From Solirubrobacteraceae bacterium (GTDB taxonomy: Bacteria; Actinomycetota; Thermoleophilia; Solirubrobacterales; Solirubrobacteraceae), in the NCBI GenBank assembly GCA_036266975.1, contig DATAWZ010000074.1, forward strand, positions 14,986 to 78,985: a stretch of 64,000 bases of DNA. Reading direction: 5' to 3'. Position 1 is the first letter of the stretch, and every line of letters begins with the position of its first letter. A program made the translations under genes and the position numbers. This document shows positions 41,125 through 62,207 of the stretch, piece by piece. The notes under the pieces are model-generated. The model was given only the letters and a program-made list of their open reading frames with translations, was not told where the DNA came from and did not search any database.

Positions 41125-41157
41125 AAGCCCAATCGGGAGGACTCGAATTCTGACCCC
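41125..41157 (-). other. Relic copy of the 3' end of tRNA-Thr (candidate att repeat)
   Basis: The minus strand reads GGGGTCAGAATTCGAGTCCTCCCGATTGGGCTT. The tRNA-Thr 3' end reads GGGGTCCGGGGTTCGAGTCCCCGACTGGGCTT. GGGGTC, TTCGAGTCC and TGGGCTT are shared; the T-stem is disrupted. Same orientation as the tRNA. Confidence 0.45.
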
Positions 41158-41189
41158 ATAGTCCGCACGCGTCGCCGCTGGCGGCCCCG

Positions 41190-41724
41190 TTATGCGCCCG
41201 TGAACCGATGCTCCGTCTGCCGGGCGTCCCTCGAGTCGGCGTGGGCGGTCCAGAAGAGCTCGGCGATGTTGTCCGGATCGAAGTCCGTCCCGGCTTGACC
41301 GCGCCGGCGATCGTGACGGTCGCGGCGTGGGTGCCGTCCTCTCGGACGCCATCGGCAATCAGCGTCTGCGCCGAGCGCAGGGCGGCCTTCCCCATCGAGA
41401 GGCTCGCCAGCGAGGGCACTGGATGGTCGGCGAAGCCGCCGCTGGTGACCAGTAGGGTGCCGCCGCCAGTGCCCGTAGGACGGGCGCGGCTACCTGTGCC
41501 GCCACGACGGCGCCGAGGACATCGACATCATGTGCGGTTCGGAGCCGCTCGACAGTGGTGTCGAGGATCTGGCCTGGATCTGGCAAGGCGTCGTTGTACA
41601 CGACGACACCGGGCGCCCCGCTCTGGAGGCGTGTGACGGCGATGGCCGCCGCCGTGTCGGGTATCGGGGCCGATCCGGCGACTGGTCGCAGTACCCTCGT
41701 GCTGTGGCCTTGGGCCGCTCGCAA
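41190..41724 (-). pseudogene. 5'-truncated, doubly frameshifted short-chain dehydrogenase
   Basis: SDR-like sequence runs across frames: ...GAPGVVVYNDA...VLGAVVAAQVAAPVLRA, then GTGGGTLLVTSGGFADHPVPSLASLSMGKAALRS...TVTIAGAVKPG, then TDFDPDNIAELFW...*. No Rossmann N-terminus remains. Confidence 0.6.
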
Positions 41725-42156
41725 TGGGTCGAGAACGTGCTTGCACTCGCCGAGCGCGAGGCGCGCGCGTTCGATGCCGGATGCGTGGGATCAGAGCACG
41801 TGGTGCTTGGCCTGCTCGGCGAGCAGCATGGGCCTGCCGCCCGGGTGCTCGTGAGCCTTGGCCTGAGCGTGGCGCGCGTTCGTGCGCAACTGCAGGCTCT
41901 GAGCCCCGCTGCGACAGCAGCACCTCCGAGCGCGGCGGTGGCGATCCCGCTCACGCCGCGGGCAAGGCTCATCGTCCTCGATCGCGCGGAGGCTGAAGCC
42001 CAGAGCCTTGGCCACGACCTGATCGACACCGAGCACATCCTGCTTGGCCTTGCTCGGGAGAACGAGGGGCTCGGTATGGCGATCCTTCGCGGTTTCGGTG
42101 CCGACGCAGCAACAATCATCGCCCAAGCTACGCGAATGCTGCCGCCCGCGAACTGA
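41704..42156 (+). CDS. Clp N-terminal (Clp_N repeat) domain protein
   Basis: Two Clp_N repeats: VLALAEREARAFDAGCVGSEHVVLGLL and LDRAEAEAQSLGHDLIDTEHILLGLARE. The start is uncertain (GTG 41704 or 41728). Confidence 0.65.
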   Translation: MALGRSQWVENVLALAEREARAFDAGCVGSEHVVLGLLGEQHGPAARVLVSLGLSVARVRAQLQALSPAATAAPPSAAVAIPLTPRARLIVLDRAEAEAQSLGHDLIDTEHILLGLARENEGLGMAILRGFGADAATIIAQATRMLPPAN

Positions 42157-42342
42157 CCGGCCCGACACCTACGACACCGCCATCAGGTCCAGGCGGGTCC
42201 GCACAAATCTCGCTCTGCGCTGCTGCTGCTCGCGCAGACCAACACGGTGGTTCGATGGTCCCAGCCGTGGTAGCAGTTCTGCTACGTTGGTCGTACGACA
42301 GTCACGATTCCCCAGAAAGAACTCCGCAACAACGTCGCGGAC

Positions 42343-42540
42343 GTGCTACGTCGCGCGGAGGCCGGCGAGCAGTTCACGATTACCGTCGCGGGCAGGCCGG
42401 TGGCTGAGCTTGGACCCACCGCGAGGCATCGTTGGGTCAGCGGCCCTGCCCTTGAGCGCGTCTTCGCGACCCCAGCACCGGAAACACTCGCCGAAGGCCT
42501 CGAGCGATTCCCCGCGGCGGTGGCGGATCCATTCACGTGA
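42343..42540 (+). CDS. Phd/YefM-type antitoxin (VapB-like); homology extends upstream of the only canonical start
   Basis: LRRAEAGEQFTITVAGRPVAEL. In-frame upstream codons read VTIPQKELRNNVAD, but there is no ATG/GTG/TTG/CTG back to the stop at 42271. The stop overlaps the VapC start (GTGA). Confidence 0.7.
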   Translation: MLRRAEAGEQFTITVAGRPVAELGPTARHRWVSGPALERVFATPAPETLAEGLERFPAAVADPFT

Positions 42541-42920
42541 GCCGCGTCCTGCTTGACACCTCGATACTGATCGGGGCCGCGGTCCCCGGGAGGCTCGAGA
42601 GTGCGATGAGTGTCGCCTCGCTGGCCGAGTTGCACTTTGGTGCGCTCGTTGCGGTCGATACCGATGAGCGCGCACGGCGAGCACAGCGGCTCGGCGTGAT
42701 CGAGGCGACGTTCGACCCGCTGCCAGTCGACGCCGCCGTGGCCCGCGAGTGGGGTCGCCTGGCCGCCGCGGTGGTCGAGCGTGGCGGACAGCCGCGGCGC
42801 CGAGCGATGGACCTTGTGATCGCAGCCACCGCGAACGTCCACAGCGTCCCACTATTGACCGCCAACACCACCGACTTCGCGATCATCGACGACCTCGTCC
42901 AAGTGCAAGGACTCACCTAA
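42537..42920 (+). CDS. vapC: PIN-domain toxin
   Basis: VLLDTSILIG...LAELHFG...DLVIAATANVHSVPLLTANTTDF. Confidence 0.85.
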   Translation: MSRVLLDTSILIGAAVPGRLESAMSVASLAELHFGALVAVDTDERARRAQRLGVIEATFDPLPVDAAVAREWGRLAAAVVERGGQPRRRAMDLVIAATANVHSVPLLTANTTDFAIIDDLVQVQGLT

Positions 42921-59851: not shown

Positions 59852-60396
59852 CGCCTACTCATCCGCTCGAGCCCGCGCCGCCGCGACGACGCGCTGCCCT
59901 CGGGCACTACGGGTGAGGGGGTGTTTGGCGCATGCCGGAGCCCTCGGGAGCCAACCGCCGCCCGGCTTCCAGGAACCACGGCGAACCGGTCTCCTCGTTC
60001 AGGCCCGTCGCTCTGGCGACCGCCTCGATCCTGCCACGCCCATGAGAGGACGCCTCCGCGGCGGCCCACAACCGCCGCCGGTTCCGAAACGGCGTCGTTC
60101 ACCTCCACTACCGCGCAAGCGTCTGACCGAGCCGGCAACGCGAGGCCAGGCAAAGACCTGCTCTCGCGACCGCGCGACCGCGCGAGCATCTGGCTGGCTC
60201 GCCGCAGCGACCCGCTCAGCGCGGATCTCGGGCACGTCCCGGCTTCGACGGCGCGAAAACCTCGCGGTGAGCGCTCAGGCACCCTTCCCGCGCGAAGCGG
60301 GTGTGGGCAGGTTCGTCGAGCAGATGCGCGGCGAAACGTGAGAGCAGGTCTCGGTTGCTGTGGCAGCACCCGAGAGCGTGCCGTAAGGGGATCCCA

Positions 60397-60873
60397 TTAC
60401 GAGGCGCAGCCCGGGTCAGCATCGAACGCTGCGGCAATGAGGTCAGTCAACGGCCCGTCGCTGCCGCTGGGGAACGCCAGTCGGGCGGTCGGGGCGGTCA
60501 CGGCGAGCGTGGTGCCCGTGTCGGGGTAGCTGACGATGTCGGGGAAGTTCACCTCGGATATGAAGAGGAGCCGGCAGGGCTCCGAGGAGGCGTTGCGCAC
60601 CCGGTGTGCGCCCTCAGGGCCGCACGGGAACGAGACGACCTCGCCTGGCTGCAACTCACGAAGCCCGGCGGGCATACGCAGCTCCGGTGTGCCGCTGAGC
60701 ACAATCAACAGCTCCTCGTTGGCGTGATGAAAGTGGTAGGGGCTGCTGAGCGTGCCTGACGCGAGCTCGACGATGCTCGCGCCGAGGCGCTGCGAGCCCG
60801 CGGCCGCGGCCAGCCTGGCGACGCGGCTGCCGCCTCTGTCCCCCTGCCACTCGGGTTCGAACGCGTTGCTCAT
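60397..60873 (-). CDS. Cupin domain protein
   Basis: Internal ATG gives MSNAFEPEW...LSSPYHFHHANEELLIVLSGTPELRMPAG...LQPGEVVSFPCGPEGAHRVRN. Confidence 0.75.
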   Translation of the reverse strand: MSNAFEPEWQGDRGGSRVARLAAAAGSQRLGASIVELASGTLSSPYHFHHANEELLIVLSGTPELRMPAGLRELQPGEVVSFPCGPEGAHRVRNASSEPCRLLFISEVNFPDIVSYPDTGTTLAVTAPTARLAFPSGSDGPLTDLIAAAFDADPGCAS

Positions 60874-61146
60874 GCGCTGGCACCATAACGCCGCGGGCAG
60901 CTGGCGAGGCCCGGGCTGCAGCGCGTACGACCGTGGGCACCCGCTTGGGTCGGCGGCCCGCAACGGGAACCATGTGCGGGAAGGTCGACCGAATGCCCGA
61001 GCGACGACCGTCCGCGAGACATGCCGTCCCGCAAGCCCCCGCCCGGTGGCCTGTCCCGGTAACGAGGCGCTATAGCGACGGCCTTGGCGCGTCGCCGTGC
61101 CCGTGCTCGAGCAAAAGCAGGTCGGCAACCCCCACGGCGGCTACGC

Positions 61147-61403
61147 CCTGCTCCTCGCCAGAAGCGGGACCGATGGTCTTGAGGAACGGACCGCCAACGC
61201 CGAAGGCGCTCATCGATGCCCCCGAGGCCCGGCAATCCCTTTTGGTCCCGCGCTCGCGGCGACCGGACGATCGAGTTCAACGGCAAGGAATCGTCCGCAT
61301 CCGGCCTCGGCTCCGGGTGACGCCGCGGGCGAGTGCTTTCCGGAAAAGCGCTCGTCCGGTCCTCGGCGCCGTGCGGTGGCGGCCGGCTTGCGCCATCGCC
61401 CAT
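61147..61403 (+). repeat. Repeat family copy B (about 257 bp)
   Basis: See copy A. Lies between the cupin gene and tRNA-Thr. Confidence 0.7.
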
Positions 61404-62134
61404 CTGCAGGCGCGCGTAGGCCCGGAAGCTGACGCGTGCATTGTTCGCGTCGCCCTCGCAGAGCCGACGATGCCGATGGCGACGAACCGCACGCGGGCTC
61501 GCCGCGGAATCGGCGCCGCGATTGACGATCGCATTCGCCCGGGAGGAGGCGCGCACCGGTCGCAGACTCGCACGCCTCGTACGCGACGAAGGACTCGTGG
61601 GCTCGCCGGGGCCCGCGCGAGCTCAGGGCCAACCTCGGGCGGGCGCGGGCTTGGGTCTCGAGGCCGAGCGGGCGTCGGATGATCTCCTCGACGCCTAAAT
61701 CGAGCTGCTCGCCATTACGTCCGGCTCGCGGTTGGCGATGTGTAGCGGGTCATCAAGGCCGTATTTGTGCGCCCATAAGGCCAGGCAGGCCCGGCTCGAG
61801 CCGCCCAACCGTCTCCCTGAGGCCGGCCCGCAGGCGAGCGAGCGCACGGCGTGGCTTGAAGGTATCGACGCCCCTGTCCCGGGAGCGGGCGCTGAATTCG
61901 CCACGCCGCGCCGCGCAATGTTCGCACTGGGTTCGCACGACTTACCGCGCGCGGGAGAATCTGCCGGCCTCGACGGGTCGAATCCCGCATGGATACTGGG
62001 GAGCGCCCTGGCGGAGGGCTCGCTCGACCCCTTCCATGGATCTGCGGGGGCTCGGCCGGAGCGTGCCGACGCACCGCAGGCGGCCCGAGCAGAAACTGGC
62101 CTTTGAGTAGGGCCTTTCTGCGCCAGCCAAGCCA

Positions 62135-62207
62135 AGCCCAGTCGGGGACTCGAACCCCGGACCCCTTCCTTACCATGGAAGTGCTCTACCAGCTGAGCTA
62201 ACTGGGC
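62135..62207 (-). tRNA. tRNA-Thr (anticodon GGU)
   Basis: GCCCAGT-TA-GCTC-AGCTGGTA-GAGC-A-CTTCC-ATGGTAA-GGAAG-GGGTC-CGGGG-TTCGAGT-CCCCG-ACTGGGC-T folds as a canonical 73-nt cloverleaf. CCA is not encoded. Confidence 0.95.

Follow-up and report, generated by a model that had tools for sequence, protein, structure and literature searches.

The region between the AMP-ligase gene and tRNA-Thr(GGU)

The DNA considered here is a stretch of 64,000 nt (the 'window', by which we mean the whole of it) from a Solirubrobacteraceae bacterium (GenBank assembly GCA_036266975.1, contig DATAWZ010000074.1, positions 14,986 to 78,985 of the forward strand). Within it, some 21 kb between a gene for an AMP-dependent ligase and the gene for tRNA-Thr(GGU) hold insertion sequences (ISs), toxin–antitoxin (TA) pairs, pseudogenes, short repeats and gene-poor DNA (Table 1). 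An earlier note on this DNA, made from the sequence alone, had read these 21 kb as a decayed genomic island bounded by the tRNA gene and by a 33-nt relic of its 3′ end, that is, by the two attachment (att) sites of an integrated element. The part of that reading which describes acquired, decaying DNA at the 3′ end of tRNA-Thr is supported by composition, IS and TA content, pseudogenes and the synteny of relatives; the identity of the 33-nt stretch as a relic is not established. The note's inventory is mostly right, as we recover its IS630 element, its IS3 relic, its three TA pairs with PIN toxins, its repeat relics and its stretches poor in open reading frames (ORFs), while two of its 'at least four' frameshifted genes could be verified, namely the SDR pseudogene (two frameshifts and a 5′ truncation) and the IS630 transposase.

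Table 1. Features of the region and its borders, in window coordinates (GC3, G+C content at third codon positions).
Feature	Position	Strand	Evidence and remarks
AMP-dependent (bile-acid-CoA-ligase-like) ligase	39636..41093	+	Pfam AMP-binding 1e-57; last intact left-flank gene; GC3 0.92
33-nt tRNA-Thr-like stretch, candidate degenerate attR	41125..41157	-	alignment to tRNA positions 43-74
SDR pseudogene, codons 79-222 of a 222-aa gene	41191..41621	-	5′-truncated; two frameshifts, three reading frames
Orphan Clp_N-domain gene	41735..42156	+	Pfam Clp_N 3.9e-23; GC3 0.73
TA pair 1: small antitoxin-like ORF (42343-42540), PIN toxin (42537-42920)	42343..42920	+	PIN 9.9e-8; 4-nt overlap
IS630-family element	43108..44297	+	50-nt terminal inverted repeats (80%), TA at both ends; NF033545 2.4e-33
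Two tandem GAF-LuxR regulators	44540..46665	+	Pfam GerE plus GAF
RidA-like gene, then acyl-CoA dehydrogenase	47020..48731	+	Pfam; native-like GC3 0.90-0.91
Gene with two XRE-HTH domains and GIY-YIG-like C-terminus, 236 aa (50979-51689)	50782..51857	+	Pfam, NCBIfam
TA pair 2: PIN toxin (51996-52400), PhdYeFM antitoxin (52390-52662)	51996..52662	-	Pfam
Repeat copy B, ~260 nt, palindromic hairpin	52897..53155	-	88% identical to copy C, inverted
TA pair 3: PIN toxin (54198-54590), MazE/AbrB-type antitoxin (54578-54799)	54198..54799	-	
IS3-family transposase relic, ~200 nt	55040..55254		blastn 69-73% to annotated plasmid IS3 transposase genes
Amino-acid permease, intact	58028..59851	+	AA_permease_2 7e-37; GC3 0.91
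Cupin gene (domain within 60508-60867)	60397..61128	-	Cupin_2
Repeat copy C, ~260 nt	61147..61402	+	in ORF-free 1.2 kb adjoining tRNA-Thr
tRNA-Thr(GGU)	62135..62207	-	ARAGORN; Rfam RF00005, 65.6 bits; presumed attL/attB site

The composition of the region is atypical for the window. Its 17 recognisable genes have a GC3 of 0.81 +/- 0.07, against 0.90 +/- 0.04 in 39 genes of the flanks (Mann–Whitney p=6e-6). Recognisable coding sequence makes up a fraction of 0.54 against 0.89, overall GC is 0.682 against 0.714, and tetranucleotides correlate with the left flank at 0.94-0.97 rather than 0.98-0.99. The compositional comparison that the earlier note had proposed as a check thus bears out a moderate difference from the flanks in GC3, coding fraction and tetranucleotides, though with a gradual shift and an uneven content: the region is a mosaic by composition, not a single foreign element.

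tRNA-Thr(GGU) as an integration hot spot

The tRNA-Thr gene turns its 3′ end (62135) towards the island side, and a tRNA-Tyr gene lies at 63866-63947 (ARAGORN, Rfam). Upstream of tRNA-Thr stands a gene of 147 aa, USP-like by our reading of its sequence and with no Pfam or NCBIfam match, which is 70-80% conserved in many Solirubrobacterales-like contigs; three of them (L095, L096 and L097) share with the window the succession of tRNA-Tyr, USP-like gene and tRNA-Thr(GGU). Nothing downstream of tRNA-Thr is common to the window and these three contigs, and conserved synteny stops at the 3′ end of tRNA-Thr in all relatives examined.

Two of these contigs, L096 and L097, carry, 7.1 kb downstream of the gene, a direct repeat of tRNA-Thr of 48 nt that starts in the anticodon loop and ends 6 nt beyond the 3′ end, with 46/48 positions identical and both differences forming a compensatory T-stem pair. 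The DNA bounded in this way (10508-17761 in L096, and the same in L097) is an integrase-less island of 7.2 kb, which contains an arginase gene call that is split and a P450 fragment that is weak, and may be a clean example of a possible earlier state of the island in the window. A 367-aa gene beyond the att repeat of L096 was considered as an integrase and rejected, as it is CMD-like and no recombinase, and nothing in the window matches it. For the closest relative, whose USP-like protein is 80% identical, we used the gene table of a contig of 22.6 kb from JGI sample 3300047160; there, genes for an HTH_17 protein, a primase zinc-ribbon protein and TraG/T4SS-coupling proteins come after the tRNA-Thr site and by their families look like an integrative and conjugative element (ICE). 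Because of the att repeat of L096 and L097 and the conjugative-element genes of the closest relative, tRNA-Thr is a real integration site in this clade. We also note that in the closest relative a 374-aa protein without a Pfam match lies directly beside the tRNA-Thr site, ahead of the HTH_17, primase and TraG genes.

The arrangement in the window itself recurs in public metagenomes: a JGI contig from a soil metagenome and the Logan contigs of a single soil run match the window without differences. The best protein matches bear Solirubrobacteraceae or Actinobacteria labels. In the one run where the organism is present at depth, contigs cover the region in the same arrangement, and one of them (40484-43187) is identical across the 33-nt stretch. 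No island-less variant was seen at either border in the contigs of the two runs X1 and X3, the second of which holds traces only, and apparent 'joints' of 20-27 nt in run contigs were rejected as spurious.

A candidate attR at the left border

The minus strand of the 33-nt stretch reads GGGGTCAGAATTCGAGTCCTCCCGATTGGGCTT. Its sequence, like the position of tRNA-Thr(GGU), is as the earlier note had given it (ARAGORN, Rfam and direct reading), and so is its broken T-stem: alignment to tRNA-Thr gives 27 identities, 4 mismatches and 2 indels (27/33), with the 5′ arm of the T-stem destroyed and the spacing disrupted. It is a partial copy in direct orientation that reaches the 3′ end of tRNA-Thr, and its four mismatches are without exception G>A or C>T, as neutral decay would be expected to produce in a genome of 70% GC. 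The AMP-ligase (+) and the SDR pseudogene (-) converge on a spacer of 96 nt that holds the stretch, 31 nt beyond the ligase stop (41091-41093) and 33 nt beyond that of the SDR pseudogene (41190-41192), and this spacer is the one place where dense intact genes give way to the first pseudogene. A special RNA or terminator in the spacer was rejected, since it showed no unusual fold (z-scores -1.0 and 0.03) and matched no Rfam family.

On score alone the significance of the stretch is borderline. When the biology of integration is allowed to restrict the comparison to the 3′ 45 nt of the tRNA and the same strand of the 62 kb downstream, p is 0.004-0.035 according to the scoring scheme (0.17 for the scheme 1/-2/-4/-2), and an alignment forced to reach the tRNA's 3′ end gives p 0.008-0.02; in these 62 kb the stretch is the top same-strand match. 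It scores 18 against the window's own tRNA-Thr and at most 12 against 16 other tRNAs, and its pattern of shared blocks, although built post hoc, is confined, in the window and 103 loci, to true tRNA-Thr genes, the att repeat of L096 and the stretch itself. As background, the fetched loci supplied 2.88 Mb of real sequence, most of it high in GC, with one non-tRNA match as good, from which a chance match of this quality is expected ~1e-4 to 3e-3 times in a boundary zone of 0.1-1 kb. The strongest argument for the stretch is its position.

Several results weigh on the other side. Comparing the whole tRNA with the whole window on both strands, the score is reached in 6-43% of third-order Markov simulations of 64 kb, and the stretch has no match to the Rfam tRNA model. 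An equal-scoring BLAST match exists at 4038-4061 (20/24 to tRNA-Thr positions 49-72, in the orientation of the tRNA); it was rejected as a second tRNA-like repeat because it lies inside a coding gene of 335 aa (3587-4594, -) and is a chance match, which makes it a useful calibration for the stretch at 41 kb. At 27/33 with two indels the match is also poorer than the att repeat of L096, which has 46/48, and its two indels in 33 nt compare with two in the 431 nt of the adjacent SDR pseudogene, a density ~10x higher, so that the stretch is either much older than the pseudogene or not homologous. With all of this considered, we lean slightly towards the view that the stretch is the decayed far repeat (attR).

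Origin of the region

The best explanation of the region, in our view, is that ~41.2-62.13 kb are probably the worn remains of at least one integrative element inserted at the 3′ end of tRNA-Thr(GGU) in an uncultured, Solirubrobacterales-like actinobacterium of soil, an event that, like the identity of the 33-nt stretch, we infer. An element with a tyrosine integrase, of the actinomycete integrative and conjugative element (AICE), ICE or prophage type, would have recombined its attP with the 3′ part of the tRNA-Thr gene, rebuilding the tRNA and leaving its 3′ end partly duplicated at the far side. Its integration and transfer modules would later have been lost. The region would have gathered copies of IS630 and IS3, the three PIN TA pairs, short repeats and pieces of ordinary chromosomal genes (the SDR, 85% DNA-identical to a conserved Solirubrobacteraceae gene, would be one such piece), and deletions would have left the ORF-poor stretches. 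Today the region would be immobile cargo and debris.

This history can be set against three others. The first keeps the island and makes the 33-nt stretch a chance resemblance: the ligase and the SDR would be ancestral neighbours, the border would lie at ~41621-41735, and the true attR would have been lost in the deletion or insertion by which the SDR was truncated. The SDR pseudogene is 85% DNA-identical to the SDR of six loci (L098-L103) from its stop codon to 41621, where the similarity stops abruptly and the unrelated Clp_N gene comes next; its read-through protein is 85-92% identical to many Solirubrobacteraceae SDRs, and its GC3 is native-like (0.87-0.94). In an Actinomycetes metagenome-assembled genome (L003), a 182-aa gene separates a homologue of the ligase (65% protein and 74% DNA identity) from a convergent SDR; this SDR belongs to the subfamily of the window pseudogene and shares 52% identity with the latter's family. 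If ligase and SDR were neighbours before the insertion, the spacer is not the island border, the border is the SDR truncation and the 33-nt stretch is chance, a reading with which its indel density, its lack of an Rfam match, the unconstrained simulations and the equal match in a coding gene all agree. If the junction was made by integration, the L003 adjacency is a coincidence, estimated at roughly 1% from the few members of the subfamily per genome, the few neighbouring positions and ~8 comparable loci. The L003 argument is weakened because the close orthologues of the SDR (85-92% aa identity) sit in a different, conserved cluster of the form Aldedh-Amidohydro_2-SDR/Abhydrolase_3 with no ligase nearby, and the adjacency is seen in only 1 of ~8 loci with a ligase at least 60% identical; the spacer has no significant homology to L003 or to the post-SDR spacer of L098-L103 (p 0.2-0.5). 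Two coincidences thus oppose each other, a chance match at the boundary (~1e-4 to 3e-3, with 4/4 mismatches that happen to be GC>AT transitions) and a chance adjacency in L003 (~1e-3 to 1e-1), and when they are weighed, allowing for the rarity of a true attR so degenerate, the odds lean with a wide range to a real relic; we regard a chance resemblance as rather unlikely. The two readings differ by ~0.5 kb in the position of the border, and on either of them the far border of the variable region is within 41.1-41.7 kb.

A second alternative dispenses with site-specific integration, the region being a native plasticity zone under relaxed selection in which ISs and TA pairs gathered and native genes decayed, with tRNA-Thr and the 33-nt stretch incidental to it. 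Several results that tell against our preferred history also speak for this alternative. The ORFs tested (Pfam, NCBIfam, PHROGs; 52.6-58.0 kb were scanned as ORFs) yielded no integrase, excisionase or relaxase gene and none for replication, for conjugation or for phage structural proteins, and a six-frame Pfam scan of the 2.3 kb beside the tRNA (59852-62134) detected the cupin only and no remnant of an integrase. GC drifts gradually, with no sharp step at either claimed border, and the RidA, acyl-CoA dehydrogenase, permease, cupin and SDR sequences are native-like in GC3. Native DNA that has lost its function could also come to a lower GC3 by AT-biased decay, with no gene transfer involved. 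The left flank at 29-41 kb is itself of accessory type (TetR, SDR, cupin, MFS), in part with lower GC3, and the context of the ligase varies in every relative: with the ligase as anchor in genome contigs, metagenome contigs and the protein database, the five best usable matches and two further loci (L002 and L003) yielded homologues at most 73% identical, with different neighbours in every contig examined and no tRNA near them in these contexts. A further point against our preferred history is that no empty site was found, the collections searched containing no genome or contig closer than 73% (ligase) or 80% (USP-like) protein identity, and that the flanks of the nearest relatives are not syntenic. 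Against a native zone stand the break of conserved synteny right at the 3′ end of tRNA-Thr in every relative examined, the real att repeats and ICE genes at the same tRNA in relatives, the fit of the 33-nt stretch to integration in position and orientation, and the low GC3 (0.71-0.84) of intact, selected genes of the region (VapC, LuxR, XRE, Clp_N); we consider this alternative improbable. In a third, the 33-nt stretch would be an internal att between tandem islands, and acquired DNA would extend left through the ligase and the TetR/SDR cluster to an outermost repeat further left or outside the window. Accretion that leaves partial att sites between elements is documented in actinomycetes (PMC2440964), and the accessory-type genes of the left flank, the ligase with no conserved context and some GC3 values of 0.76-0.86 are compatible with it. 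The left flank is nevertheless dense (0.89), with a mean GC3 of 0.90 and a tetranucleotide correlation of 0.98-0.99, its gene calls contain no mobility genes, and the 41 kb to the left hold no other tRNA-like repeat save the match inside a coding gene; we consider tandem islands very unlikely.

Comparison with known integrative elements

The setting is a familiar one. In actinomycete integrative elements the att identity segments overlap the tRNA's 3′ end, pSE101 integrates in the Thr-tRNA of Saccharopolyspora erythraea, an island of S. coelicolor is bounded by a 43-bp repeat of the 3′ end of Pro-tRNA, and tandem insertions and remnants are known, for example the Sco3997 remnant (PMC2440964). 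Like these elements, the region in the window lies against a tRNA 3′ end, has a candidate distal direct repeat and an atypical composition, and occurs in an actinobacterial host; like their remnants it has taken up secondary IS and TA insertions and lost the functions of the element. The 48-nt att repeats of the relatives fall in the 43-58 nt range typical of AICEs. None of the AICE or ICE modules (integration/excision, replication, FtsK/Tra-type or T4SS transfer) was detected in the window, and unlike AICEs the region is left with no gene, whole or fragmentary, for an integrase, an excisionase, Rep, an FtsK/Tra-type protein or Kor; part of a conserved chromosomal gene figures in its mosaic content, and its candidate repeat, at 27/33 with two indels, differs from typical near-identical att repeats.

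Two further categories resemble the region in part. Cis-mobilizable elements (CIMEs), described in streptococci, are att-flanked islands without recombination or conjugation modules of their own. The island of L096, with its 48-nt repeats, fits this description well, and the region in the window is likewise integrase-less at a site used by integrating elements; unlike a CIME, its far repeat appears too degenerate to serve as a recombination substrate, and no helper element is known. One may go further and imagine that tRNA-Thr(GGU) of Solirubrobacterales-like actinobacteria is served by a lineage of elements whose recombinase is not recognised by profiles, integrase-less islands such as those of L096 and the window being cis-mobilisable cargo moved in trans. 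The basis for this is thin, namely the 374-aa protein without a Pfam match beside the tRNA site of the closest relative, and we think it most improbable. The region is also like the IS and TA 'junkyards' found beside tRNAs, in its dense IS relics, TA modules, pseudogenes and short repeats and in a content that varies among relatives; that label claims no site-specific integration, whereas the geometry here and the relatives point to entry mediated by an integrase.

We class 41-62 kb as a decayed, integrase-less island or accretion zone at a tRNA-Thr hot spot, of a known kind, ordinary among actinobacterial genomes and with no sign of a new mechanism. It adds one more decayed tRNA-linked island, from a poorly sampled lineage of soil actinobacteria, and shows tRNA-Thr(GGU) as an integration hot spot in this clade. 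It has no bearing on any open question, and its practical value lies in annotation: ~20 kb can be flagged as accessory or decaying, and a public 'gene' at 49848-50966 as probably non-coding. The region also illustrates how weak the case for a 33-nt att 'relic' is when it cannot be compared with an empty site.

Gene cassettes, repeats and other features of the region

The transposase of the IS630-family element is split over two frames, an HTH ORF at 43177-44085 (HTH_32) and a DDE_3 piece at 43950-44258, and the element shows the features of its family in its terminal inverted repeats, the TA at both ends and its DDE transposase. Further along, the gene after the acyl-CoA dehydrogenase encodes a protein of 245 aa that is membrane-like by sequence and has no family matches. 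The public gene call at 49848-50966 (372 aa) is rich in Arg, Ser, Pro and Ala, has no family matches and a GC3 (0.74) barely above its GC1 and GC2, and contains a copy of the 260-nt repeat described below; it is probably non-coding.

The XRE/GIY-YIG gene is bracketed by imperfect inverted repeats (50782-50853 and 51786-51857) of 73-115 nt, 81% identical over 73 nt, so that 50782-51857 resembles a small cassette, which may be mobile as a unit. The ~260-nt repeat has a palindromic core, CGGACGAGTGCTTT..AAAGCGCTCGTCCG, and occurs as copies B and C, 8 kb apart, and as a third, partial copy at 50475-50615. It is probably non-coding and may be an element of the kind of miniature inverted-repeat transposable elements (MITEs) or repetitive extragenic palindromes (REPs). 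An ORF with a SHOCT tail lies between TA pairs 2 and 3, and ~2.7 kb between the IS3 relic and the permease contain no recognisable genes.

A few observations concern the genes at the two ends of the region. The cupin of the window is 42% identical to a cupin of L089 (677-1147) whose stop overlaps the start of the closest homologue of the ligase (73%); in the window cupin and AMP-ligase are 19 kb apart and on opposite strands, and the likeness of the two cupins may reflect a paralogue or a past rearrangement. No other part of the window comes as close to public sequences as the SDR fragment (85% DNA, up to 92% protein). In run X1 a more abundant organism of the same soil has a related SDR, ~88% identical over 41200-41467, and the contig that carries it retains the base which the window lacks at one of its frameshift sites (depth 16 against 10). 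Finally, a homologue of the ligase with 66% identity stands in L091-L093 beside a TetR gene and two MlaE-type and six MlaD-type genes, in what looks like an mce-type locus for lipid or steroid uptake, a context which hints that the ligase family may act in lipid or steroid catabolism.

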